From: Leucoraja erinacea
Taxonomy: Eukaryota
Reading direction: 5' to 3'
Length of the DNA: 64,000 bases
Assembly (NCBI RefSeq): GCF_028641065.1
Contig: NC_073380.1
Coordinates: forward strand, 91,388,001-91,452,000
Shown here: one piece after another, positions 7,637-60,826 of the stretch
How positions within the stretch are numbered: position 1 is the stretch's first letter
Layout: each line of letters begins with the position of its first letter
Notes under the pieces: generated by a model
What the model saw: only the letters and a program-made list of their open reading frames with translations
Databases searched by the model: none
Told to the model about the DNA's origin: nothing
Made by a program: the position numbers and the translations under genes

Positions 7637-8521
7637 TTATATTACAGAACTTAAAATTGTTTCTGTAAATGTTCCAGGTTCAATTTCTGATTTGTTATAA
7701 AATCGTTGGAAAGTTTTCTCCGTTGACCATCCTGCTGTCTTGAGGATTTGGTCCATAGGGACATCCAACTTCATAGCTGCCGATGTAGCTGCAGCCCTGG
7801 TGGAGTGAGATTTAAAAATGTTAGTGTCTACTCCAGCCTTTATTAGGACCTGTTTTAGCCATCTCGAGATGGTCTGGACTGTCACTGTTTTGTGTGGCTG
7901 TTTGTAGCTGATTAAAATTGCCATTTCTTTGCCTCTGTTGATCTTAGTATACTCCATATATAATAGCAAGTGTGTTACAATACAGAGTCGATCATCTGTC
8001 GGGTAGGCCCTGAATTCTATTTTTAGGCCTGCTGACCCCTGGCTGTTCTGTTTGACTATTTCATTGATGTGAAAAGTTAAATTTCCAGATGAAGTAGTCA
8101 TGTTGTCCAGCCTTAGTTTCTGTAGTGACTGGACCCTTTGTGCCGTGACCAAGGCCATCAGCATGACTGTTTTCATAGTCAGTTTCTGTAGGGACAGAGC
8201 TGTAGCTGGAGACCAGTTTCTTAACATGGTCAGTACAATGCTCACATCCCATATTTGGTAGTACCTGGTTCTTAGGGGATTAACATTAAAAATGCCCCTC
8301 ATGAGTTTAGTTACCGGGGGGTGTGTCCCAACAGAATGCCACTCTGTTCCTTGCCACAGGTATGTTGACAGAGCACTTCTGGCGCAGTTGATGGCACTAT
8401 AACTGATCCCCTCATCGTAATGGAGGCTTGCCAGGAATTCCAGAACAGACGGGATGTTCATAGATCTGAGGGTGATGTTATTGTTGTGACAGTACATTTC
8501 CCATTTCTTGATGTACACCAA
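7637..8521 (-). CDS. DIRS tyrosine recombinase (lambda integrase fold)
   Basis: Catalytic residues recognisable: AQR(VQSL), SHSTR (HxxR), AGW, F.RFY; N-terminal core-binding region (YSAINCARSALS). The frame stays open upstream as ISATHRQSTKKQYL. Confidence 0.92.
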   Translation of the reverse strand: MVYIKKWEMYCHNNNITLRSMNIPSVLEFLASLHYDEGISYSAINCARSALSTYLWQGTEWHSVGTHPPVTKLMRGIFNVNPLRTRYYQIWDVSIVLTMLRNWSPATALSLQKLTMKTVMLMALVTAQRVQSLQKLRLDNMTTSSGNLTFHINEIVKQNSQGSAGLKIEFRAYPTDDRLCIVTHLLLYMEYTKINRGKEMAILISYKQPHKTVTVQTISRWLKQVLIKAGVDTNIFKSHSTRAAATSAAMKLDVPMDQILKTAGWSTEKTFQRFYNKSEIEPGTFTETILSSVI

Positions 8522-8631
8522 GTACTGTTTTTTGGTGGACTGTCTGTGGGTCGCTGAAATAATATTTGGTCCGTCAGTCCCAGGTGTAGTAGAGGTGCTT
8601 TCAAACTCTACAAATTAATAGGTTTATAGAA

Positions 8632-9936
8632 TTATGACATGGGTGACTTTCCCTTGTTACGGGAATGAACCAGTAAATTAGGTCTATGATGGATGGTGAT
8701 GCATGGTTCTAATATCATGTCGAGTATCACCGGGAACCATGGTTGAGTAGGCCAATCGGGTACTATCAAAATACCAGACGCAGAGTCTTGCTGTATTTTC
8801 CTTAATACCCAACTGATGAGGCAGAAAGGAGGGAATGCATAAATAAACAATTTCCCCCAATGCAGCGAAAATGCATCTGTTGCCGCTGCCCCAGGGTCTC
8901 GTTCCCATGAAACATAGTTTGATAACTGGTGATTGAGCCTGGATGCGAATAGATCGATATCTGGTGTTCCATACTGTGCTGTAATTTCAGCAAATACATT
9001 TTTATCCAACATCCATTCGGTGTTTTCATTGAATTTGCATGACCTGGTGTCTGCCACTAAATTTAGTTTACTTGGTAAGTAGGTAGCTGATATCCAAATA
9101 TCTCTCTGGATACACCATTGCCAAATTATGTTGGCCAGATTGTCACATGATGTCGATATGTTTCCACCCATGTGGTTGATATATGCTACCACGGTGGTGT
9201 TGTCAATTTGTAGTCTAACATGCTGATGATATAACCCAGAACAATATGACTTAAGGCCATGGAATGCACTTAACATTTCCAGGTAGTTTATGCCCAGTGT
9301 TTGTAATAATGATGCCTCCTGTACATTCCATCTCCCCCCACAGCTGGAGATGGAATTGGTAGCACCCCAACCAAATGCACTGGCATCAGTTTGAAGTACC
9401 ATAGACGGGTTGCTGATAATGATTGGATTGGAACAATGCCTAATGTTATCTTTCCACCATTTCAGTTCCATTATGGCCTCTGTTGGTAGCTTCATTGGTC
9501 TGTCAAAATGACCACCATTAATTTTGAGTGCTCGTATTTTAGCCCTCTGTAAATTTTGATAATGTAAAGGTCCGAATTGTGTGGCTGGAAATGCAGCCAC
9601 TATTTTGCCAATTATTCTTGCTACCAGTCTGATGGATAGTTTAGTGATGTCAATGATTTTGCTGCAAGCCTCTATTAAGGCTGTAACCTTTTCTTTCGGC
9701 AAAGTCACTGACATGTGAACTGAGTTAATGGTGAATCCCAGATAATCCATTGTGGTTGAAGGCGTTAATTTAGATTTAACTGGATGGATGATAAACCCCA
9801 GTTTTTCAAATAATTGTTTTGTGGCTGTTACCGTTTGTGTAGGCAATTCCAAAGTTTTGCCCACAATAAGTATGTCATCTAGTTATGCCATTACCATGTG
9901 TTTTTGTTTCCGCAGAAACGCTAGGGCTGGTTTCAA
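8632..9936 (-). pseudogene. DIRS pol remnant: RT C-terminal half, RNase H and Dam-like methyltransferase domain
   Basis: In-frame upstream of the ORF is LKPALAFLRKQKHMVMA*LDDILIVG, i.e. YLDD with TAA at 9883-9885. RNase H: TDASAFGWG, INYLEM, DNTTVVAYIN, NLVAD. MT: DIDLFAS, DAF...W, YAFPPF, P.WP.QPWFP. A +1 frameshift near 8662 hides the ending HPVTRESHPCHNSINLLICRV*. Confidence 0.92.
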
Positions 9937-9939
9937 CCT

Positions 9940-10102
9940 AGATTCCTTCTTGAGAAAGGACATTGAGAAGCCTCAGCTTCTACTGTCAAAACGCAGGAAC
10001 GCGATACTGATTTTAGATGATCAGCCCTGATCATATTGAATGGCGGTGCTAGCTCAAAGGAGCAAATGGGGAGCAAAGGAGCATCTATTTTTCTATGTTT
10101 CC
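9940..10102 (+). mobile_element. Older CR1 3' tail abutting the DIRS truncation point
   Basis: gatactga...gatgatcagccctgatcatattgaatggcggtg...ttctatgtttc. Confidence 0.7.
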
Positions 10103-10319
10103 ATAAAGCCATTGCTTATTCTTCTAAACACCAGTAAATACAGGCCTATCTTGTTCAATCATTCTTAAGGTATAACATCTGCAACCCAGAGGACCACCAA
10201 ATGTCCTTTGTCAGAATTTCTTACAGGTTCACCAAGACTTCTAATTTTGTACTCGACCCTTCTTGCAGTAAAGACCATTTATTTTGTCTCTCATTAAATA
10301 TGATTCTTATATTCTGATA

Positions 10320-11109
10320 TTATCTGAATGGTGGCCGATTAGTATTACCTGAATGGTGGCCGATTAGGAAACGGGGAGATGCAACGAGACCTGGGTGTCA
10401 TGGTGCACCAGTCATTGAAAGTAGGCATTCAGGTGCAACAGGCAGTGAAGAAAGCGAATGGTATTTTAGCATTCATAGCAAAAGGATTTGAGTTTAGGAG
10501 CAGGGAGGTTCTACTGCAGTTGTACAGGGTCTTGGTGAGACCACACCTGGAGTATTGCATACAGTTTTGGTCTCCTAATCTGAGGAAAGACATTCTTGCC
10601 ATAGAGGGAGTACAGAGAAGGTTTACCAGACTGATTCCTGGGATGTCAGGACTTTAATATGAAGAAAGACTGGATAGACTCGGCTTGTACTCGCTAAAAT
10701 TTAGAAGATTGGGGGGGGGGATCTTATAGAAACGCACTAAATTCTTAATGAGTTGGACAGGCTAGATGCAGGAAGATTGTTCCCGATGTTGAAGAAGTCC
10801 AGAACAAAGGGTCACAGTTTGAGGCTAAAGGGGAAATCTTTTAGGACCGAGATGAGAAAAACAATTTTTACACAGAGAGTGGGGAATCTCTGGAATTCTC
10901 TGCCACAGAATGTAGTTGAGGCCAGTTCGTTGGCTATATTTAAGAGGGAGTTTGATGTGGCCCTTGTGGCTAAAGGAATCAGGGGGTATGGGGAGAAAGC
11001 AGCTACAGGATACTGAGTTGGATGATCAGCCATGATTATATTGAATTGCTGTGCAATCTCAAAGGGCCGAATGGCCTCTACTCCTGCACATATGTTCTAT
11101 ATTTCTATG
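10320..11109 (+). mobile_element. CR1 subfamily A 3' portion with stops and frameshift
   Basis: QRDLGVMVH...KKANG.LAFI...RPHLEYC; C-terminus ...GYGEKAATGY*; ttctat tail; about 25-bp tandem duplication at the 5' junction. Confidence 0.92.
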
Positions 11110-11160
11110 ACTGCGTCCAACTGCTGTCTGGTTCGTTGATCGGTTTGCTAGATATGAACT

Positions 11161-12236
11161 AACCATATAACCATATAACAATTACAGCACGGAAACAGGC
11201 CATCTCGGCCCTACAAGTCCGTGCCGAACAAATTTTTTTTTCCCCTTAGTCCCACCTGCCTGCACTCATACCATAACCCTCCATTCCCTTCTCATCCATA
11301 TGCCTATCCAATTTATTTTTAAATGATACCAATGAACCTGCCTCCACCACTTCCACTGGAAGCTCATTCCACACCGCTACCACTCTCTGAGTAAAGAAGT
11401 TCCCCCTCATATTACCCCTAAACTTCTGTCCCTTAATTCTGAAGTCATGTCCTCTTGTTTGAATCTTCCCTATTCTCAAAGGGAAAAGCTTGTCCACATC
11501 AACTCTGTCTATCCCTCTCATCATTTTAAAGACCTCTATCAGGTCCCCCCTTAACCTTCTGCGCTCCAGAGAATAAAGACCTAACTTATTCAACCTATCT
11601 CTGTAACTTAGTTGTTGAAACCCAGACAATATTCTAGTAAATCTCCTCTGTACTCTCTCTATTTTGTTGACATCCTTCCTATAATTGGGCGACCAAAATT
11701 GTACACCATACTCCAGATTTGGTCTCACCAATGCCTTGTACAATTTTAACATTACATCCCAGCTTCTATACTCAATGCTCTGATTTATAAAGGCTAGCAT
11801 ACCAAGAGCTTTCTTTACCACCCTATCGATATGCGATTCCACCTTCAAGGAACTATGCACGGTTATACCCAGATCCCTCTGTTCAACTGTATTCTTCAAT
11901 TCCCTACCATTTACCATGTACGTCCTATTTTGATTTGTCCTGCCAAGGTGTAGCACCTCACATTTATCAGCATTAAACTCCATCTGCCATGTTTCAGCCC
12001 ATTTTTCCAAATGGCCTAAATCACTCTGTAGACTTTGGAAATCCTCTTCATTATCCACAACACCCCCTATCTTGGTATCATCTGCATACTTACTAATCCA
12101 ATTTACCACACCTTCATCCAGATCATTGATGTACATGACAAACAACAAAGGACCCAACACAGATCCCTGAGGCACCCCACTAGTCACCTGCCTCCAACCC
12201 GATAAACAGCCATCCACCATTACCCTCTGGCTTCCC
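11161..12236 (-). mobile_element. CR1 subfamily B, 5'-truncated, with open RT C-terminal ORF (11246 to about 12236)
   Basis: SGVPQGSVLGPLLF, YINDL, KYADDTK, W..TWQM.FN..KC motifs; (aaccatat)n tail. The first ~80 aa of the listed ORF are read-through of flanking DNA. Confidence 0.95.
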
Positions 12237-12479
12237 TTTGGGAGAACTTGGAACTGTTTTGGGAGAGTAAAATGCTCACGGCAGACAAAACGTGTTAAAC
12301 AGAAATTGGTCAGATATTGAGTTATACACAGTAAGAAATCATGTGAAATAATCACTGAATTTAATTTTAAATGAATGTACCTGCATGTTATACTGTTTAG
12401 TTTGGAAATACAACCAGATAGTCTGGTTGATACAACCAGATTAATTTGGATATACAACCAGACAGTCCACCGAGTTCGC

Positions 12480-12874
12480 ACCGACCAGCGATTTTTGTTA
12501 CAGATTTGACAATTTTATTTGGCGGCCAATCAATCGCTGTCTCTAAGGGGGTTGCATCCAATCACCAACCAGCTTGCTTTAAAATTCCCGTCCAATCAAC
12601 AAATAGGTCTCCTCCCGTCCAATCAGCCGCTGTCTACAAGGGCATTGTGTCCAATCACATAATGCATTTTAATGGTAATTAGCAGCTACGGTAAATGTTG
12701 GAAGCCAGCGGAGCTACTGACAGTCAAACGAGATGGGGGAGCAGGAGAGATTCACACAGTGTATAATCCATCGCACCTAATGTACAATTTCATAATATAT
12801 ACTAAATAACTGGGAACCTGGGGCCCACCAAAATTGTTCCCAATTGGGCCCCGCACATCCTAAGGCTGGCCCTG
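12480..12874. mobile_element. One end of a probable hAT-like DNA transposon with a CCAAT-box array
   Basis: Ends in gggccccgc...aaggctggccctg (CAGGGCC-type TIR with GGGCCC subterminal motifs); five CCAATC motifs. The partner TIR was not found. Confidence 0.5.
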
Positions 12875-14124: not shown

Positions 14125-14335
14125 ATCTGAAATAACATTGAGCAGATCAGGCAATATCCATGGAAAGAGGAACAACTAACATTTCAGATCCAGAACCTCT
14201 CCCAGTTCTGAAGTTATCCAGAACTGGGAGAGCTTCTAAAACTAATTTGTGTTTTTCTCTTCTCCACTTCTGACCCAAGGGTTCCCTGACCTGAAGTGTT
14301 AAGTGTTTCCCTTTCCACTGACAATGCCAGACTTT
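14125..14335. mobile_element. Old Penelope-tail fold-back remnant
   Basis: Minus-strand tail followed by a plus-strand tail (ctga...aagggtt...gacctgaa.tgtt); internal hairpin ctctcccagttctg / cagaactgggagag. Confidence 0.5.
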
Positions 14336-15599: not shown

Positions 15600-15740
15600 A
15601 AAACAAAGAACTGCAAATGTTGATTAATACACAAACAAACACAAAATGCTGGAGTAATTCAATGGGTTAGGCTGCATCGCTGGTGAACATGGACAGGTAG
15701 ATGTTGGGACCCTTCGAGTTACACCAGCATTTTGTGTCGT
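15600..15740. mobile_element. Penelope-tail fold-back unit
   Basis: acacaaaatgctggagtaa ... ttacaccagcattttgtgt inverted arms. Confidence 0.7.
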
Positions 15741-16351
15741 TTCACCATAAAACTAGGCGCCGCTGCCGCCTACACCGTGGACGCGGCTATTGTTGCGGCT
15801 CGCGATGTAGCCCCTGGCACAGCGCTTTCTTCAGGCCTCTGCCAACTACACAATGCACTCGGTCACTTTGTCAGGTCCCCGCTCCACTGCTGCTGTCTTC
15901 TCCTCCTTCTCCCGTTGATCTGTTCATTCAACCTCTCCCCTGCAGTTGCCAACATCTTCCAAGATGGAGTATGTCAGTGACTCCGGGGGGAAAGGAGGAT
16001 GAGGTGGCACTGGCGAGGGGGGAGGGGCTGAGTGGACAGAGCAACGGGTGATGGAGGATCAGGCGGCGGTTGAGCAGGGTTGCGGGCAAAGCAACGGCTG
16101 ACAGGAAGAAACGGCAGCTGCTGAGAGGGGAGGGAACCCCAAGGTGACTCAGCACGTCCTGTCGGTGGCGGCTTCCTGAAGAAAGTGCTGTCCCCAAGGG
16201 CTACAACGTGAGCCGCAACAACACCCGTGTCAACCGGACCATGCGGTGGGTTAAGAAGGGCTCGCTGGTGCACCTTGCAAGCAGGAGGAGTCAGAGCAAG
16301 CTGGGGGTGGCGTCCGCTATAACCAAAATCCTTTAAAAAGGGGTCCGTTTC

Positions 16352-21302: not shown

Positions 21303-22372
21303 CAAACAAGTTCTGTCCATTGAATGTCCCTGGAATGCTTTGACAAATGGCAAAGCCACATCCCACAACTCTACCCTTTATTGAAGCTGACAAGTTTGTT
21401 CAATGCTCCTGAATTCCCCTGACATTTAGAAACTTTCAAAATCCATTAAAAATTAAATAAACGATTAGAACCATTAAAATTATACAAAAAAAAGAGACAA
21501 ATGCTTATAAATAATTAACCACATTAAAGCAAACACAGTAAATTATAAATAGTAAATTATCTTATCTTTCCTTTATTTCTTGCAGTCGTACGATGACCAT
21601 CCAACTGAAAGAACTTGTGTATGTTAATTCAGATCTAACCTGATACAGAGTCACAGAGTAAATACCCCAATGTAAATGCTGGGAAGTTTCACCACCAGTG
21701 AAGTCCATGTGGGATCTAATGGTGAAGCTTAGCTTGGAAATGGTCAGCGAAAATCAGTCGGCAGGATTGCAATTGCTCCCTTTTTTGGCAAGAGTCCTGA
21801 AACGTGCAGGTCACTTTAATCTGGAACTGCTGTCAAACCCTTCAAATCCTGGGCCAGTGCACTATCGGCAAGTTCCATGAAAAACACTGTTGGTTCAGGA
21901 TACTGATGGAGTGCAATAGATGGGGATTATCCACAAGACTAACACCAACATGTTTCCTGTCCTCTGACACATCAACAACCTTGTAATATCCCAAGATTAA
22001 CAATAAAGCAGACTAATAATAGCCCTCTCGGGTGTCCTCAGGTGAAAAAAGCTGATCATGTGACCATGTGGGCAGGACTATATAGGTGGTAGAGACCTGG
22101 GAAATATTGTAGAACAGAGAGATGTGGAGTACAGAAGCATGGTCAGCCAAATATGATGACGCAGGCAATGATATTACTTATGGTTCCATCTACCTTTATC
22201 TATTATCTCAATTGCAGTTGGGAATTGTACGGGATAACTTGTGGAATTTTAAGTATTTTGCTATTTTTGAGGTTCCGGCAACTTTGTTCATAGGCATGGA
22301 GTCCATTAAAGAATGAACCACCTCCTCCCATATGACCTGGTTCTGCTCTTGCATATCTTGTTGACATGAGTC

Positions 22373-22517
22373 GACACAAATTGCTGGAGTAAGAGGGAAT
22401 TTGAACCCAATAAGCTAAGGGAGCCCAAAACACCACCTATCCCTTTTCTAGAGAGATGCAGTCAGACCTGCTGAGTTACTCCAGCACTTTGTGCCGATCT
22501 TTGGTATAACCAGCATC
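22373..22517. mobile_element. Penelope-tail fold-back unit with foreign filler at the junction
   Basis: acacaaattgctggagtaa ... ttactccagcactttgtg inverted arms. Confidence 0.7.
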
Positions 22518-27900: not shown

Positions 27901-27992
27901 AGTCTGAAGAAGGGTCTGGACCCAAAACGTCACCCATTCCTTCTCTCCAGAGTTGCTGCCTGTCCCGCTGAGTTACTCCAACTTTTTGTGTG
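27901..27992 (+). mobile_element. Penelope 3' end fragment starting at a hammerhead-like core
   Basis: CTGAAGA-AGGGTCTGGACCC-AAAA-CGTC; flanked by aagctaagct (27885-27894) and aagctaaact (27993-28002), a probable TSD. Confidence 0.8.
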
Positions 27993-28609
27993 AAGCTAAA
28001 CTTGCTGCTCATCTACAACTTTCAGTGGATAGTTTGTTTTTTCCCCCGTAATTTTGGTTGCTGGTGTTACATGTTGTTGATTTTCTGGTGCCGTCCTGCA
28101 TAATTTGTAGAATCACCATGTTTGACTTAAGAATAGTGCCCATTGGCCCACTTGGGAAGGCAGCCAGGGTTTTGGGTCAATGTATTTTCCCAGAGACACT
28201 ACATCTAGTGAAGTAATGCCTATAGATTAGTTTTCCAAAGTGGGAATTGAACTCAAAATCTGATTCAAAGAGTGCTACCAACTATTCATTATAGTGGAGT
28301 TCATCCTGACGGACCAAAATTAGATTATAACAGTGCAATACTTACATGGTAATTGGTCACCAAAAGAAATGTGCTGGTATCATAAGTTCATAAGTTATAG
28401 GAGCACAATTAGACCACTCAGTCATGGCTGAGCTAGCTTTCCCACTCAATCCCATTCTCCCCAAAACCCCTGACACTCGATGTGATTTAATGTGATTCCA
28501 GTCAAGACTCCAGGTCAGGCAATATCTGCGAGGAGAGAAGAAGGATTCATGTTTTTGATGATGTCCTTTGATGAAAGATTATAGGCCTGAAATATTTTCC
28601 CAATTTCCA

Positions 28610-32915: not shown

Positions 32916-33142
32916 GAGGAACCACTGGGCCTCTGCTGCGGTTCTGAGTCTCACATTGGAGGAGGGTGGTCAGTAGCTGGTATGCGTACATACCCAGGTT
33001 GCAGCTCACTGTCTCAGGACCCTGCGGTGGTAACTGTATTCTGAGCATCCTCCTAGATGCCAGCGCTGCCGACACACTGTTATTGCCAGAGGTATTTCCT
33101 TCAGGAGTGCACACAGCTCCTGGCAGTGGGTATGAGTCACCC

Positions 33143-33343
33143 ATGTAGGAAGGAACTACAGATGCTGGTTTAAACCGAAGATAGACACAAAAAGCTGGAG
33201 TAGCTCAGCGGAACAGGCTTCATCTCTTGCAATGGTTCAATTGTAAACTGAAGAAGGGTCTCGACTCAAAAAGTCACCCATTCCTTCTCTCCAGAGATGC
33301 TACCTGTCCCGCTGAGGTACTCCAGCTGTTTGTGTCTATCTTC
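33143..33343. mobile_element. Complete Penelope fold-back mini-insertion with a 14-bp TSD
   Basis: Minus-strand tail 33146-33227, then plus-strand hammerhead-like core and tail 33248-33346; GGTATGAGTCACCC at 33129-33142 and 33344-33357. Confidence 0.85.
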
Positions 33344-33559
33344 GGTATGAGTCACCCGATCTGTTAAGTGTCTGGAGTTTGGTCACCATCAGTCAGCGTG
33401 CTACTCATCGGAGGCACGGGGGTTGTAGCTACGAGAGTGGACCATCTTCACCCTGTCACGGTGGGTGTTGCGGAGGGAGGCTCCATGAGTGTGGGGTGAT
33501 TCCGACTGAGCTTACTCCCGCTCCGTTGGAATTTCTCATTGGAGCCAACCTCCGGGACC

Positions 33560-34281
33560 ATGGGTGTCATGGTACACCATGTCATTGAAGGTAGGCATGC
33601 AGGTGCAGCAGGCAGTAAAGAAAGCGAATGGTATGTTGGCTTTCATAGCAAAAGGATTTGAGTATAGGAGCAGGGTGGTTCTACTGCAATTGTACAGGGT
33701 CTTGGTGAGACCACACCTGGAGTATTGCGTACAGTTTTGGTCTCCAAATCTGAGGAAGGACATTATTGCCATAGAGGGAGTGCAGAGAAGGTTCACCAGA
33801 CTGATTCCTGGGATGTCAGGACTGTCTTATGAAGAAAGATTGGATAGACTTGGTTTATACTCTCTAGAATTTAGGAGATTGAGAGGGGATCTTATAGAAA
33901 CTTACAAAATTCTTAAGGGGTTGGACAGGCTAGATGCAGGAAGATTGTTCCCGATGTTGGGGAAGTCCAGGACAAGGGGTCACAGCTTAAGGATAAGGGG
34001 GAAATCCTTTAAAACCGAGATGGGAAGAACTTTTTTCACACAGAGAGTGGTGAATCTCTGGAACTCTCTGCCACAGAGAGTAGTTGAGGCCAGTTCATTG
34101 GCTATATTTAAGAGGGAGTTAGATGTGGCCCTTGTGGCTAAGGGGATCAGGGGGTATGGAGAGAAGGCAGGTACGGGATACTGAGTTGGATGATCAGCCA
34201 TGATCATATTGAATGGCGGTGCAGGCTCGAACGGCCGAATGGCCTACTCCTGCACCTAATTTCTATGTTTCTATGTTTCTA
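33560..34281 (+). mobile_element. Young CR1 subfamily A 3' portion (open 206-aa frame)
   Basis: CR1 ORF2 C-terminus; (tttctatg)n tail. Confidence 0.95.
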
Positions 34282-36607: not shown

Positions 36608-36780
36608 GAAACAAGGAACTGGAATCTTGAGCAAAACACAAAGTGCAGGAGTAACTCAGCAGGTCAGGCAACATCTCAGAAAGACTTGGATAAACAATGC
36701 TTTGGGCCAGATTCTTCAGATAGACCCGACCTGAAACGCCGTCTATCCATGTCTTACAGAGATGTTGCCTGATCCACTCA
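36608..36780. mobile_element. Penelope-tail fold-back unit
   Basis: tcaggcaacatctc ... gagatgttgcctga inverted arms; the turn lies at ttcttcag / gacctgaaacgcc, inside the hammerhead-like motif. Confidence 0.7.
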
Positions 36781-37907
36781 CCCCCGCATTTTACGGTTTG
36801 CTCTTAAAATACACCATTGCTTTTCACCTCAAGTGGATCAAAATCCTGGCACTCCCTACCTAATAACATTGAGGAGCACCTCCATTAGAAGGTGACAAAC
36901 AAAACTGAAAAAGAGTTCCTTAATATATAGGAGAAGAGTAAACACAAACAGGAGGTTCTAACAATAAGAATGGATTTAACAGACTGGCACCGACAGATGG
37001 CTTGCTGGAATGAAATGACAAAATTGGGTTGATGTAGAAAGCATAGTCCACTTCCACTTGTTCAAGAACATTTAGTGGTTTGTAGTAAATGCTGGTCTTG
37101 CCCACAAGCCAGTTGGTAGTCAGTTCTAATGACTCTGGGTAAAGAAATTTCTGCGGGATTCTCTGTCGGATTTATAAATGAACGTTTCATATCTATTGCT
37201 CCTTATACTGGTCTCCCTCCTAATAGGCACAATGTGAGGAGGATGTTTCCTCTTGGGAGTCTAGAATCAAGTGTCACAGACTCAGGATGTGGTGTACTAC
37301 ATTCATGTGTGATGTGAGGAGTAGCTTCTTCACCTGCGGAACTCTGTACCACAGGGGTCCATGAAGAGCAAGTTGTTGAATATATTTAAGGAGGTAGATA
37401 CATGTTCTGCACTCAAAATGCATCAAGGGGCATGGGAATATAATATTAGCATAAGGAGCACCCATGATCATGCCAAAGGCAAAGAGGCTTGAAGGCCAAA
37501 TAACCAGCTTTTTTTCTCTTTTTTTTTCTTTTTTCTCTACTTCTTCATTTCAATCTTTGTTTCAAAGTGGAAAGACCTTCTCTGCCCCTATCTTTATTGT
37601 TTGCACCTCATTGTTTCTTTGCTTTTGCCCTTATTCGACCAGAGCAATTGAAATTAAATAAATGCCATGTCATCTGTTAATTTCACTCTCATTGGCAGGC
37701 TAGTTCATGTCTAACAGTTGGTGGTTGGTCCACCACATCCATGCAAAGACAAAGGTATCCTCAGCCTGATTGCAGGTGCATTTGCCAATCTTTGTAGATT
37801 GTGGTGCAATCACCTTGGAGTAAAATAATATCTGGAATTTGCAGTCAGCAGTGAGGTGGCAGTTCTCTCTGGTGATCTTTAAAATTAAAAGAAAATCCAA
37901 TTATTAA

Positions 37908-47031: not shown

Positions 47032-48825
47032 TCTATCTGTATTATACTAAAACTCTCTTTGTGGCTGTGTGCGTGCGTGTGTGTGAGAATCTGGTTAGTT
47101 CTCCTTTCTTCCAACCTCTAGGCCACAGCCTTCCCATTTTCACACACTCCACTCACATTTTTCCCGTTGCATTCCCACCTTTATTTCCCAAGTTTTTTAA
47201 TTTAAAGTTTTAATAACAGCCTGAAACTACCAATTTCCTGACCGCGTGATGTCACAATGCACTCTCCAGCGCTCCAAAGGCACTTTCCAGATTTCCAAAA
47301 AACTCCTGGGGAGGGAGGAGCACTCCACCGCTCCAACGACAACTCGCAAAGCAGGACAGGACACGCCGGGAGAGAGGATGGCAGCGGCTGCCGGCAGCCG
47401 AGGCCCAATACCCAAGACCACGCCCGGTGGGGAGGGTGGTGTTGGAGTCAGCGCCGAGCCCGGGGCTTGGGATGGGACCGAGAGAGAAGACGCCGCTGGA
47501 ACCAAGGACGAGTCGACTTCCGGGGTCAGGACGAGCATGTAGATGAAGTCAGGGCCTGGACTGGTGTCCTGGCGGCGGCGAGCTGACGGCTGGAGTCTAC
47601 AGCCAGGGCTGGGTCGAGTACGAGAACCAGGCCGAGCTCCAGGTCCTGGAGCTGCTCTATGATCAGGGTAGGTCCTGGGACAGGGAAAGGGAGTGAGGGG
47701 AAGAAGATGAGGGATATGAGGAGGAGGGAGATGGAGTGGGGTGGTAGTGGGAGGAGATGGGGGGGCGGGGGGATTGTGGAGGAGGGAGATGGGGAGCAGT
47801 GGAGGAGGGAGATGCCCCCTCCCTATCTACTCCCTCCCTCTCTACCCCCTCCTCCTCCCCCTCTACCAACCCCTCACCCTCTCCCTCTCTACTCCCTCCC
47901 TCACCCTCTCCCTCTCTACCCCCCTTCCCTCTCTAGGACGAGGGAGTGCTGGGGATGAGGAGAAATGAGCCGTGTCTGCGCAGTTGAGGCCATGCATGAG
48001 TGATCAAATATTGCGTTGGGGGAACGGGTGAGTGGTGGAATCTGCACTTGGTCTAGTGTTANNNNNNNNNNNNNNNNNNNNNNNNNNNNNNNNNNNNNNN
48101 NNNNNNNNNNNNNNNNNNNNNNNNNNNNNNNNNNNNNNNNNNNNNNNNNNNNNNNNNNNNNNNNNNNNNNNNNNNNNNNNNNNNNNNNNNNNNNNNNNNN
48201 NNNNNNNNNNNNNNNNNNNNNNNNNNNNNNNNNNNNNNNNNNNNNNNNNNNNNNNNNNNNNNNNNNNNNNNNNNNNNNNNNNNNNNNNNNNNNNNNNNNN
48301 NNNNNNNNNNNNNNNNNNNNNNNNNNNNNNNNNNNNNNNNTCCTATTTCTTTCTCTGTCTCTACCACCTCCCTCTCTACCCCCCCCCCTCTCTCTCCCTC
48401 CCTCACCTTAACTATTCTCCCTCCCCCCATTCTACCCCCCTCCCCTCCTCCCCCCATTCTACCCCCTCCCTCTCCCTCTACCCCCTCCCTCTCTGTCCCT
48501 ATCCCTCTCTATCCCCCTCCCCATCACTCTACCCTCCCTCTCTACCTGCCCCTGCCCTTCCTCTCCATCCCCCCCCCCTCCCTCTTTACCCCCTCCCTGC
48601 CCCCTCCCTCGCTGCCCCCATCCCTCTCTGCCCCCCCTCCCTCTCTAGGGATTGAAGAGGGAGGGTGAATAGGAGAAGGAAGGAGTGCTGGGGGATGAGG
48701 AGAAATGAGCCGTGCCGGCGCAGTTGGGGGCTATATATGAGTGGTGAATATTGCGTTGGGGGAACGGGTGAGTGGTGGGATCTTGTGTTGGGGAAGTAGA
48801 CCCAATGGGTCTGCACTTGGTCTAG
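47032..48825 (+). mobile_element. Non-autonomous Helitron with two 3' ends, spanning an assembly gap
   Basis: 5' A|TCTATCTGTATTATACTAAAA; 3' hairpin gtagaccca-a-tgggtctgc (48796-48814) then CTAG|T (48822-48825). A second CTAG end without the hairpin lies at 48053-48056. Internal GA/CT-rich low-complexity blocks. Confidence 0.75.
48062..48340. other. Assembly gap (279 N)
   Basis: Run of n. Confidence 1.
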
Positions 48826-49424: not shown

Positions 49425-49945
49425 GTAGGAACAAGGAACTGCAGATGCTGATTAATACAGAAAAGGACACAAAGTGTTGGAGTAACTCAGCAGGTCTTGC
49501 AGCATCTGTGGAGAACATGGATAGGGGAACATTTTGGGTTGAGACCCTTCCTCAGACTGATTGTGTGGGGGAGGGGGGAGAAGAATGCTGGTAAAGGGGA
49601 GAGGCAGGACAAAGCGTTTCAGGTAATAGATCAAAACAGGCGAGGGATATTTTTGACAGGTAGACGGTTGAAACAAAGGCCAGAGATAAGGAAGCAAGAT
49701 GTGAGACAAGGTTGAAGAATTGCCGATTGTAACCCAGAGGAGATGGTTGTGGGGCGGGGGGGAGCTGTGGGTGGAGGAGAGAAAAAGCTGGGCATCAATG
49801 TGGGGCACAGGGAAGGGAAGGGGATGTAAAGTGAGGGGGGAAAGGGGCGTTGAGGGGCTATGCGGGGGTTGTGAGCGGTTGGAGAATTCAATGTTCATAC
49901 CATTGGGTTGTAAGCTACCTAAGTGGAATGTGAGGTGCCGTTCAA
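49425..49945 (-). mobile_element. Penelope-like element 3' end (GIY-YIG ORF C-terminus plus 3' UTR/pLTR)
   Basis: LERHLTFHLGSLQPNGMNIEFSN is a PLE endonuclease C-terminal motif; pyrimidine-rich UTR; decayed core CTGAGGA-AGGGTCTCAACCC-AAAA-TGTT. Confidence 0.85.
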
Positions 49946-50765: not shown

Positions 50766-52057
50766 CAAGTTCAAGTGAGTTTATTGTCATGTGTCCCTGT
50801 ATAGGTCAATGAAATTCTTGCTTTGCTTAAGCACACAGAAAATAGTAGGCATTTACTACAAAACAGATAAATGTGTCCATATACCATGATATCAATGTAT
50901 ACACACATGAATAAATAAACTGGTAAAGTGCAAATAACAGAAAGCGGTTATTAATAATCAGAGTTTTGTCCGAGCCAGGTTTAATAGCCTGATGGCTGTG
51001 GGGAAGTAGCTATTCCTGAACCTGGTTGTTGCAGTCTTCAGGCTCCTGTACCTTCTACCTGAAGGTAGCAGGGAGATGAGTGTGTGGCCAGGATGGTGTG
51101 GGTCTTTGATAATACTGCCAGCCTTTTTGAGGCAGCGACTGCGATAAATCCCCTCGATGGAAGGCAGGTCAGAGCTGATGATGGACTGGGCAGTGTTTAC
51201 TACTTTTTGTAGTCTTTTCCTCTCCTTGGCACTCAAATTGCCGAACCAAGCCACGATGCAACCGGTCAGTATGCTCTCGACTGTGCACCTGTAGAAGTTA
51301 GAGAGAGTCTTCCTTGACAAACCGACTCTCCGTAATCTTCTCAGGAAGTAGAGGCGCTGATGAGCTTTTTTGATAATTGCGTTAGTGTTCTCAGACCAGG
51401 AAAGATCTTCAGAGATGTGCACGCCCAGGAATTTGAAGCTCTTGACCCTTTCAACCATCGACCCGTTGATATAAACGGGACTGTGGGTCCCCATCCTACT
51501 CCTTCCAAAGTCCACAATCAGTTCCTTGGTTTTGCTGGTGTTGAGGGCCAAGTTATTGCGCTGGCACCATATGGACAGTTGCTCGATCTCTCTTCTGTAT
51601 TCTGACTCATCCCCATCAGTGATACGCCCCACAATAGTGGTGTCGTCAGCGAACTTGATGATGGAGTTCGCACTGTGGTTGGCTACGCAGTCATGGGTAT
51701 AGAGTGAGTACAGCAGGGGGCTGAGCACGCAGCCTTGAGGTGCTCCCGTGCTGATTGTTATCGAGGCTGACACATTTCCACCAATACGGACAGACTGTGG
51801 TCTGTGGATGAGGAAGTCGAGGATCCAGTTGCAGAGGGATGCGCAGAGACCCAGTTCTGCGAGTTTGGTAACCAGTTTGGAGGGGATGATTGTGTTGAAT
51901 GCCGAGCTGTAATCAATGAATAACAGCCTGACATATGAGTTTTTGTTGTCCAAGTGGTCCAGAGCGGAGTGGAGGGCCAGCGAGATCGCATCCACCGTTG
52001 ATCTGTTGTGGCGGTACGCAAACTGCAGTGGGTCCAGGTTTTTGTCGAGGTAGGGCT
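50766..52057 (-). mobile_element. Young Rex1/Babar LINE, 5'-truncated
   Basis: Open RT frame, (aacttg)n tail, possible TSD gacttt at 50760-50765 and 52058-52063. Confidence 0.93.
50958..51995 (-). CDS. Rex1/Babar reverse transcriptase (C-terminal part, uninterrupted)
   Basis: LDPLQFAYR in frame upstream; [53 protein letters not shown]. Confidence 0.93.
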
Positions 52058-52177
52058 GACTTTGCCCTGTTTACTATCTGCTACAGTAGGTCATACGTCT
52101 TAAGCTGTAGCATAATACATATTAATCAATGCATTAAAAATATGACCCAGTGTTTCAGATTTAGTTATTACGATAGT

Positions 52178-52277
52178 GGACACAAAATGCTGGAGTAACC
52201 CAGCGGGTCAGGCAGCATCTCTGGAGAGAAGGAATGGGTGGCGTTTCGGGTTGAGACCCTTCTTCAGACTGAAGAAG
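52178..52277 (-). mobile_element. Penelope 3' fragment with the best-preserved hammerhead-like core
   Basis: Minus strand agtCTGAAGA-AGGGTCTCAACCC-GAAA-CGCC; perfect micro-inversion cttcttcag-a-ctgaagaag (52259-52277) at its 5' junction. Confidence 0.85.
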
Positions 52278-56301: not shown

Positions 56302-56648
56302 GTATGAATATTGATTTCTCTAACTTCAAGTAACCCCAGCATTCCCTCTCTCTCTATCCCTCCTCCACCCAAGTCGTACCAGCTTCTCGTTTTCACCCAA
56401 CAAACAGCTAACAATGGCCTGTTTCCTTCATCATCGTTACTTTTTTGCATACCTTTCGAATATTGATCTTTATCTCTCTACATCATCGTTTCTTGTTTCA
56501 CTTTTCCCTAGCTGGACTGAAGAGGGGTCTCGACCCGAAGCGTCACCCATTCCTTCTCTCTAGAGATGTTGCCTGTCCCGCTGAGTTACTCCAGCTTTTT
56601 GCGTCTATCGTCGGTTTAAACCAGCATTTGCAGTTGCTTCCTTCACAA
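56302..56648 (+). mobile_element. Penelope-like element 3' end
   Basis: MNIDFSNFK* ORF end at 56333, UTR, core CTGAAGA-GGGGTCTCGACCC-GAAG-CGTC (56517-56544), terminal ccagcatttgcagttgcttcc. Confidence 0.88.
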
Positions 56649-58247
56649 TAAATGTTGCATTTTGACTTGTTTCTAAATCTGATTGTATCTGTAAAACTCT
56701 TTTATTTTTTCATTGTGATTTTCCCTTTTACTGTTTTCGATTCAGTTCTGCAGCCCTATTACATGTTATAAAATGCTGTCCAAATGCTTTTATTCTTTCT
56801 GGCCACATTACCTACAGGGCTTGTGTAGAGAAATGATGCTTCCCTTTCCACATTCCTGAAACTTCGTTCTCGATCAACAGGCTTCAAGTGAATATTTATT
56901 TTTAGCAGAAAATAATGAACCATGAGAACCAGCAGCTGAACAGGCATCCAAATGTGTTGAATTGAAATATCCAATATTGGTGCCTAGTGATGCCTGTCTA
57001 AATATCTGCTGGTTACTTTGGAATGGCATTGTCATTCATATAAAATCAAAGCAGAGTCTCCTTAGTGTTGCCGCACGGTTTTCCTTTCAACATCCAAATG
57101 ATTAGGTATGTTTGACTGTGCTTTATTTTAAGAGCCCTCCAAAAAAATATTTTCCTTCCCAGGCATAGGCATGCAAGGCTACGTTTAATTTTAAACGAGG
57201 AGGGCAGCCACACTGGGAACATTTCTCAAACAAGGCAGGCATCCTAGCTATTTCCTGGTTGTGGACCGGTTTCAGTCTCTCGTACACTTAAGTCAAGCCA
57301 GAAGCTGGCAGGGGGAATAATGAGAGCCCCAATGTTGTTTCCAGTGCACCTGTTCTTATTTTCTCGCTGCAGACTACATTGGGACAGACTGACAGGGGTC
57401 AAAATCAGAGGATTAGTTGCAGAATTTAATGTGGGTGAAGCCTGCTGTCCATCCTGAAGGCCAGGCCACTCTGTTAGAATGACACATAAATAACCTATTA
57501 TGTCCCCACCCAAGGAAATTCAAATGCACCTGCCAAATTGATAAAGCACTTGCCCAGAGGGAAACATTGTTTACATTTTCACTCTAGTCTCCTGAAAAGT
57601 GAGATACTAATTATTTTCCTTTCCTCAGAAATTAATGCCGGGTGCAATTGAAGTGCAAAAAAAAAACTCACGAGTGTCGTCATAAATGGTGATAAATATA
57701 TTTTTTGTATGTTTTAATGAGACCTATGTTTACACTGCACCCTCATCACTTTCTTAATACGCAGCAGTTAGTTCATTGACTACAAAGGGAAAGGTTAAAG
57801 GAAAATGGCTGAATGCCATCGATGAATACAGAAAAAGCTTCTGCAAAGACGTATATGCAAATACATACACCAAGCTTATTTGCAATGCATCTCTACATAT
57901 GGTGGTATAATGCGTTCATATATGCGCAAGGTATACACTTAAAAACTATGGCAAGAATAATATGATAACTATGTTAATTTTATTTGTCCGTGTTTGCATC
58001 TTGAGTTTTATTCTCATTTTACAAATGGGGATCAACACACAACAACAAAAGCGGATTCCACTCCCAAAGTATCAGAGTATATTAATTTCTTCTGCCGGTG
58101 TCTTTCAGTCAAATTCAGCTGCCTTTTGTAACTTCCTGCCCTCATCCATCATTTTCTATACTGAGAGTTGCAGAGGGGAGGGGCAATGCCAGGGGAATTC
58201 ACACTCAACCTAGTTCCAGGACTGAGTGCTGCTCCTCAGCCCCATGG

Positions 58248-60741: not shown

Positions 60742-60826
60742 GTAAATGCTGGTATACAAAAAAAGAAAAAAGACACAAAGTGGGTCCAGCGATGCTAACT
60801 GACCCACCAGTTACTCCAGCACCTTT
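60742..60826. mobile_element. Collapsed Penelope-tail fold-back remnant
   Basis: aagacacaaagtg ... gatgctaactgaccc..agttactccagcac. Confidence 0.55.

Follow-up and report, generated by a model that had tools for sequence, protein, structure and literature searches.

The window analysed here, a stretch of 64,000 nucleotides from Leucoraja erinacea, contains at 33129-33357 an inverted unit in which a target-site duplication (TSD) is followed by a minus-strand arm with a 34-nt tail, a 20-nt filler and a plus-strand arm that starts from CTGAAGA and has no tail (Table 1). The original prediction of a minus-strand Penelope tail followed by a plus-strand tail from CTGAAGA, with a perfect 14-bp TSD, is confirmed exactly at these positions. 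Positions along the element are given as those of a family profile (135 positions, 66 seed copies), where position 1 is the C of CTGA and the predicted ribozyme cut falls after position 28. The two arms of the focal unit are inverted over 54 nt with 89% complementarity (fold z = −11) and are clearly unequal, with the tail on the left arm alone and the motif start on the plus arm alone. The long (L) arm is 5′-truncated, starting at family position 46 (45 nt past the core start and 17 nt past the predicted cut); it has the tail and lacks the hammerhead core.

The host of the focal unit is an old repeat. The stretch that matches the 14-mer is single in all four aligned paralogues of this host repeat, all of them insert-free (five were fetched; the fifth has a longer gap). 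Near the focal unit, a search for the source of the filler gave no local match longer than 8 nt. At 33357/33358, where the right TSD copy ends, about 31 nt that are present in four paralogues are missing from the host repeat; derivation of the filler from these missing nucleotides was considered and is ruled out by the paralogue comparison.

Table 1. Features of the focal unit and of the related copies in the window (bounds originally predicted are given in brackets)
Feature	Positions	Strand	Evidence and remarks
Left TSD copy GGTATGAGTCACCC, perfect 14 bp	33129..33142	+	Sequence; host-repeat paralogues without insert
Long (L) arm, PLE end, family positions 46-130	33143..33227	-	nhmmer with family profile, E 3e-22
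Tail of the L arm, 34 nt, family positions 97-130	33143..33176	-	Profile coordinates
Filler, 20 nt, between the 5′ ends of the two arms	33228..33247	.	Weakly self-complementary; junction genome-unique
Short (S) arm, positions 1-96, hot-spot start, ends at second 3′ site, tail-less	33248..33343	+	Profile, E 1e-30
Hammerhead-like core (CUGAnGA, 4-bp helix II, GAAA, GUC)	33248..33275	+	Sequence; predicted cut after 33275
Right TSD copy GGTATGAGTCACCC	33344..33357	+	First 3 nt continue the element: 3-nt microhomology at the presumed primed end
Very old divergent inverted unit, weak	14128..14335 (14125-14335)	.	44 nt, 75%; no TSD found
Older L+S head-to-head unit	15601..15748 (15600-15740)	.	29-nt inverted match, 86%; no TSD found
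Older head-to-head unit, spacer of ~30 nt	22369..22517 (22373-22517)	.	22 nt, 91%; no TSD found
Solo S-type stub, hot-spot start	27904..27997	+	Profile search
Older L+S unit	36612..36802 (36608-36780)	.	32 nt, 88%; arm starts 2 and 11
L-type copy, apparently running on into the pyrimidine-rich upstream UTR	49428..49640	-	Profile search
S-type arm; micro-inversion of 9 nt at the hot spot	52167..52277	-	Profile search; 15-bp TSD-like pair, 2 mismatches
Solo L-type stub	56517..56649	+	Profile search

The same inverted layout had been predicted at five further places in the window. Four of these are indeed inverted units, but at 60742-60826 the HMM search found a single arm and no inverted pair. 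The micro-inversion noted at 52259-52277 is also present, with perfect 9-nt arms, of which four nucleotides belong to the element's own TCAG-N-CTGA palindrome. The arms of the unit at 22369-22517 start at family positions 70 and 16. Among the sites other than the focal unit, TSD-like pairs were found only at 36612-36802 (11 bp, one mismatch) and 52167-52277. The centre of the oldest inverted unit (14195-14232) is a perfect 15-nt inverted repeat with an 8-nt loop and a weak mir-567 match. At 47676-47933 a purine/pyrimidine low-complexity inverted region, adjoining an N stretch (48062-48340), gave spurious Rfam miRNA matches. The window also has open frames of 224-422 codons at 33560-34184, 7637-12514 and 50958-52070, which resemble remains of LINEs (CR1/L2-type).

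The parent element and its hammerhead-like motif

The focal unit is the non-coding end of a Penelope-like element (PLE) with a reverse transcriptase (RT) and a GIY-YIG endonuclease (EN). Long copies consist of a pyrimidine-rich untranslated region (UTR) followed by an ORF with an RT domain (PF00078, E 1e-6) and, C-terminally, a GIY-YIG domain (PF01541, E 0.002-0.006), both matches lying below the Pfam curated cut-offs; the DKG and YIGET motifs are visible in the translations, in the order RT, then EN. Between these two domains there is a CxxxxCxxC linker that fits the Neptune criterion CX2-5CxxC, and linkers of this type are described in excerpts of PMC8557442 as typical of Neptune and common to Nematis. 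A PDB search with the parent ORF gave no matches. The PLE origin, inverted ends and hammerhead-like core that had been claimed for the focal unit are supported.

Copies of a young subfamily are 97-99% identical, while the focal subfamily is older (80-86% identity from copy to copy); tblastn pieces of its upstream ORF mostly match the young protein at 55-80% identity. Partial tandems that give a pLTR before the ORF were found at 3 of the 14 loci fetched with a 5′ ORF query (L166, L172 and L176), all in the young subfamily. In these three full-length tandems, the core, the site at which S arms end and the tail are followed by the ATG about 35 nt beyond the tail, meaning that the 'tail' is an internal segment of the 5′-UTR and not the RNA 3′ end. 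Since no full-length copy of the focal subfamily was found, this continuity from tail to ATG rests on the related young subfamily. The young PLE subfamily (L152-L176 and L198-L217) has open frames of up to 1042 codons with a repetitive Pro-rich region before the RT, and was apparently active recently. At L172:406-507, the RNA read depth is low (about 5-19), biased to the element's sense strand over the ORF start and lower still further in, which hints weakly at transcription from the pLTR-ORF junction.

Conserved in the family are the CUGAnGA motif, one additional A, a helix II of 4 bp, the GAAA motif, an ACGU palindrome, and GUC or GUU. Type I hammerhead features (CUGAnGA, GAAA, NUH, G10.1-C11.1, helix II and a helix III palindrome) are thus found family-wide but not in the focal copy, whose core is predicted to be dead because AAAAA stands in place of GAAAC and helix II includes one G-U pair; reads show the family alleles at 33266, 33268 and 33272. 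The closing G-C is present in 102 and the GUC triplet in 77 of 133 arms. Helix I has two pairs and not 4-6 bp, with A-C at the third pair in 91/133 arms, and its changes are one-sided (U-A/U-G) only, with no two-sided covariation. An Rfam scan of the window gave no hammerhead family at E ≤ 1, and the sense 130-nt RNA has no special stability (z −0.3 and +1.6). Outside the PLE repeat, one unrelated hammerhead-core match was found in 1.2 Mb, and there is therefore no control family. The Penelope hammerhead of D. virilis, as described in excerpts of PMC4209133, likewise has a 2-bp helix I, an extra base before helix II, a palindromic helix III region and a YAG just upstream; unlike that variant, helix II here has 4 bp with a tetraloop, and no sign of splicing was seen at the YAG.

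A census of arms and of their 5′ ends

The profile was run on 120 tiles of 10 kb at round coordinates of the 33 largest contigs (1.2 Mb), and matched 532 arms, as compared with none in a reversed-sequence control. The 495 arms with E < 1e-3 and clear of tile edges were used, and arms within 60 nt of each other were counted as neighbours. Head-to-head neighbours were by far the most frequent (79), with 4 tail-to-tail and 17 direct, the last mostly truncated; the head-to-head density of about 68 pairs per Mb extrapolates to about 150,000 pairs per genome. A TSD of at least 9 bp was found for 36/79 pairs but only 2/72 shifted controls. In 43 well-defined units, 16 of them from a selected set of loci, TSD lengths were 10-17, and the nick site showed a T-rich bias and nothing more.

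The 3′ ends of the arms are bimodal, at about 87-102 (S) and 124-133 (L), the two sites being about 35 nt apart. Pairs with one tail (L+S) made up 52 of the 68 that could be classified (11/79 were dropped as unclassifiable), whereas 33 would be expected under independence (p = 3e-6); 13 pairs were S+S and 3 were L+L. The selected set of 30 loci (27 L+S) was picked for likeness to the focal unit, is biased, and was kept out of this statistic. The young long-armed inverted units all had a TSD and a tail on exactly one arm (11/11), although one short arm ends at about 76 and one long arm consists of nothing but the tail.

The 5′ ends, taken from local alignments of 10-25% diverged copies and hence blurred by a few nt, pile up 3-4 nt upstream of the hammerhead core, at an initiator-like TC/AGT. 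Positions 1-4 are reached by 176 of the 304 solo arms; 164 were anchored, 64 of them running on into the UTR and 100 having a unique flank (92 after removal of 8 mis-calls). The fraction of element letters kept is estimated at 0.86-0.89 for −1 to −3, 0.38 for −4 and 0.25 for −5, and it is this fall to 38% at −4 that places the main edge at TC/AGT. Loss per base is about 6.5% over the 14-nt hot spot versus 0.9% within the element, and a TSD abuts the edge in 24/100 cases versus 0/100 in the control. In the pairs, at least one arm has a hot-spot start in 48/79 and both arms in 20/79. RNA reads also break at −3/−2/−1 (563/281/158 reads in X24); since nearly all of them come from copies embedded in host transcripts, they confirm the DNA edge and not a transcript start.

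The turn or 5′ junction had been predicted to fall repeatedly in or beside the ribozyme-like motif, which, it was suggested, may set where reverse transcription stops or switches template. Clustering is real, and the junctions plotted against the predicted GUC cut are non-uniform along the element, but they gather at the 5′ edge and not at the cleavage site: 9/495 arms start at 28-30, where the 210 starts in positions 5-60 would predict about 11 (9 starts in 27-31, 36 in 17-26 and 24 in 32-41). It is therefore very improbable that the hammerhead sets the junction, whether by self-cleavage that makes the RNA 5′ end or by a folded or protein-bound ribozyme that stops the RT. The hot spot does adjoin the core and coincides with a strand of the 2-bp helix I, and the core motif is kept across subfamilies. 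A structural stall, however, would be expected 3′ of the core, whereas the pile lies upstream of the whole core and is reached by the RT only after the core has been copied; the two-pair helix I without two-sided covariation and the mutated GAAA of the focal copy also speak against such a role. In excerpts of PMC11167929, ribozyme core mutants are reported to be without effect on the insertion of the Poseidon element PAc of Anolis.

The vertebrate initiator consensus is YYANWYY, and the YCAGTCT of the 5′ edge agrees with it, with +1 at the A of the edge. An internal promoter of Inr/DPE type lies within the pLTR of D. virilis Penelope, according to excerpts of PMC2377424. The RNA reads of three poly(A)/single-cell runs revealed no place where many molecules begin. 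An extra G of the kind that a cap would leave was likewise looked for at −4 and not seen (4 G among 18 non-C). The predicted cut has an ACGTC (family positions 24-28) that falls about +27 to +31 from the putative +1 A. At this distance a downstream element of GACGTG type occurs in Drosophila LINE/Penelope promoters, and ACGTC may double as a promoter element.

The main rival to a transcript start is a splice acceptor. Twin priming with an edge set by a 3′ splice site, by an RT stall at a C-rich tract or by the TCAG-N-CTGA palindrome is, in our view, rather unlikely. The upstream UTRs are pyrimidine-rich and YAG-ended, CAG/T resembles a splice acceptor and the bases at −4 to −2 resemble exon ends, and excerpts of PMC4209133 map a D. 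virilis intron end to helix I of a hammerhead with a 2-bp helix I. Yet a spliced upstream piece of the element was present in 0/100 unique flanks, the abutting TSDs leave an exon no space, the target often did not supply the G or AG, no joint ends at that AG among the RNA joints listed, and the actual edge is C/A and not G/T. Solo copies also have the edge, with no partner arm beside them.

Origin of the two arms

We favour, with moderate confidence, the view that these units are stubs, i.e. gene-less minimal insertions of an EN+ PLE, in which both 3′ overhangs of a staggered cut would prime cDNA that runs off at the RNA start. Judging by the sharp ends, the enzyme probably copies its RNA from either side of the DNA break and probably falls off at the RNA start, immediately upstream of the ribozyme motif. 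The GIY-YIG domain, probably dimeric, would nick the two strands 10-17 nt apart; the tail-end site would be primed by one overhang and the upstream site by the other, on RNA from the same source copy and aided by 1-5 nt of microhomology. Both cDNAs would be extended toward the RNA 5′ end, and end joining, with microhomology or filler, would then connect their two ends in head-to-head orientation. The start sites would lie in the 5′-UTR, at distances of about 95 and 130 nt from the initiator-like TCA(+1)GT of a transcript start, and with both sites so near the transcript start many copies would run off in a strong-stop-like manner. The hammerhead would be a passenger in this insertion process. 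In L1 twin priming, both target strands prime, the 5′ part is inverted, the junction is end-joined, and the arms are non-overlapping parts of the RNA. Here too both target strands would prime, with an inverted part and an end-joined junction, but the arms have sequence in common and each begins at one of two fixed sites.

Of the 52 L+S pairs, 18 have an S arm whose start precedes that of the L arm by 8 nt or more, 13 have the S arm nested in the L arm, and in 21 the two starts lie within 7 nt. Each arm contains sequence absent from its partner in the 18 non-nested pairs and likewise in the focal unit, showing that neither was copied from the other; a snap-back origin of the focal unit is thereby excluded. 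In young units the outer ends overlap the TSD by at least 2 nt in 11/22 cases as compared with 16% by chance (p = 2e-4), which is expected if both ends are primer junctions. Within a unit the arms diverge by 15.7%, as against 24.5% to other arms, and share 16 rare alleles where about 4.5 are expected. In 4/9 young pairs the arms share alleles absent from all other 37-47 arms, and in 7/9 the partner arm ranks first (ties included) for at least one arm. The arms of a unit being closer to each other points to one source copy, although gene conversion between the arms could also explain it.

Twin priming in which each arm takes one of the two sites is thus the reading that we favour, in part by analogy with both-strand extension in vitro. 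In excerpts of PMC11167929, two internal RT start sites bound the tail during PLE insertion in vitro, both strands are nicked and extended, and an enzyme dimer is predicted. Both strands used the same start sites in that system, however, which by itself gives no one-tail coupling and counts against the model, as do the existence of S+S and L+L pairs and the 16/52 pairs that turn near-symmetrically (starts within 3 nt). These near-symmetric turns, some at natural palindromes, and the 13 nested pairs are explained equally well by self-priming fold-back, in which a single cDNA (or, following Arkhipova et al. 2013, an antisense template) folds over on itself and copies the first arm, a route that has been proposed for PLEs (excerpts of PMC3846280) and that also fits the 9-nt micro-inversion at 52259-52277 and the private alleles shared by the arms. 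As the general explanation fold-back is unlikely; the 18/52 non-nested pairs and the focal unit refute it as the only route, and the S arm ends at the site of solo copies, with a primer-like TSD microhomology. It probably accounts for a minority such as the micro-inversions, and the symmetric turns (16/52) and the inversion at 52259 may be true fold-backs.

As a tentative and rather speculative extension of twin priming, the stubs could be the PLE counterpart of retroviral strong-stop DNA, made in pairs. A dimer would hold one RNA at two sites 35 nt apart, each cut end would prime at one of them, and both cDNAs would run off where the RNA begins with its cap, the initiator there sharing sequence with the hammerhead's helix I. 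If this were true, the inverted ends and the one-sided tail would be explained in a single step, and the 100,000+ copies would constitute an in vivo map of PLE start sites and of the transcript start.

Insertion by-products and known systems

The proposal that ORF-less hairpin units arise repeatedly is borne out as repeated independent formation, and each unit has its own TSD. It had also been suggested that they may amount to a retrozyme- or SINE-like family, and we find this scarcely credible. The focal junction occurs once in 2.19 Gb (search with up to 3 mismatches), which argues against a mobilised hairpin, and the 109 units examined have 96 distinct junction geometries and no identical junction string at independent loci, a string test weakened by the 10-15% divergence (L005 and L012, with common flanks, are a segmental duplicate). 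A mobilised non-autonomous family would suit the great abundance of the pairs, the recurrence of geometry 1/11 six times and 1/15 four times among the 30 units chosen for focal likeness, and one short tandem array of 90-nt units. The recurrent geometries, however, sit on short self-similarities or microhomologies of the element and have differing outer ends, and the units are not tandem. The outer ends keep the two sites of solo copies, which would be unexpected for a re-copied hairpin and indicates a by-product. No reads were found at the focal locus, nor on its flanks (zero depth), in the three poly(A)/single-cell runs (1-5% of each); in the same data no joints or ends of monomer or circular RNAs were found, such libraries being of a kind that misses circles. 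Each hairpin unit is thus an insertion by-product, likely made anew at its own site, and the focal hairpin is one of many tiny one-off PLE insertions, not a new ribozyme-driven family.

The comparisons with published systems below draw on excerpts of the cited papers. Non-LTR retrozymes have head-to-tail repeats, a complete ribozyme per unit and circular RNA (PMC7229834; bioRxiv 10.64898/2026.07.22.740005). The skate units resemble them in being ORF-less, related to PLE pLTRs and in having a type I hammerhead-like motif, but are head-to-head, unique per locus and often core-less on one arm; the focal unit is head-to-head with one broken core. The canonical EN+ PLE unit consists of a pLTR, an adjacent inverted 5′-truncated copy, a one-sided tail of 30-40 bp and a TSD (Pen2a_Av, PMC3846280; Fig. 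2, PMC8557442), and the layout of an inverted truncated copy with a tail on one side is therefore already in print. Head-to-head arms, the one-arm tail, the TSD, microhomology joins and solo pLTRs are common to both, and long-armed versions occur here too; what differs is that the skate units are reduced to 100-250 bp, have a sharp 5′ hot spot, and have had their one-tail coupling measured against a null. The open literature (Repbase, Dfam, subscription papers and supplements aside) yielded no report, for sharks or skates, of a 5′ hot spot, of one-tail statistics or of units in this miniature form. As in PAc (PMC11167929), two internal AC-rich start sites near the ORF start and the hammerhead bound the tail, and both strands would be extended. 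Unlike in PAc, the sites here lie in the 5′-UTR before the ATG, the genomic ends have a short primer microhomology, the two sites are split between the arms, and the parent has a Cys linker of Neptune/Nematis type.

The stubs set three constraints on models of PLE insertion, namely one tail per pair, arms that come from one source copy but are often non-nested, and a 5′ edge, sharp to one base, that does not coincide with the ribozyme cut. They are numerous and make the origin of the inverted ends and of the one-sided tail of PLEs testable. For annotation, hairpins of this type in cartilaginous fish are PLE stubs that can pass for miRNA precursors or MITEs; in the window, hairpins gave weak Rfam matches to mir-266 and mir-567.

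The tandem array mentioned above lies at L028:1483-1977 (G000:C37 near 882,200), where an L arm and four head-to-tail S-type units of 90-93 nt are enclosed by one 14-bp TSD-like pair. It is the nearest thing to a retrozyme-like array that we have seen, and may have arisen by serial re-initiation or by later duplication.
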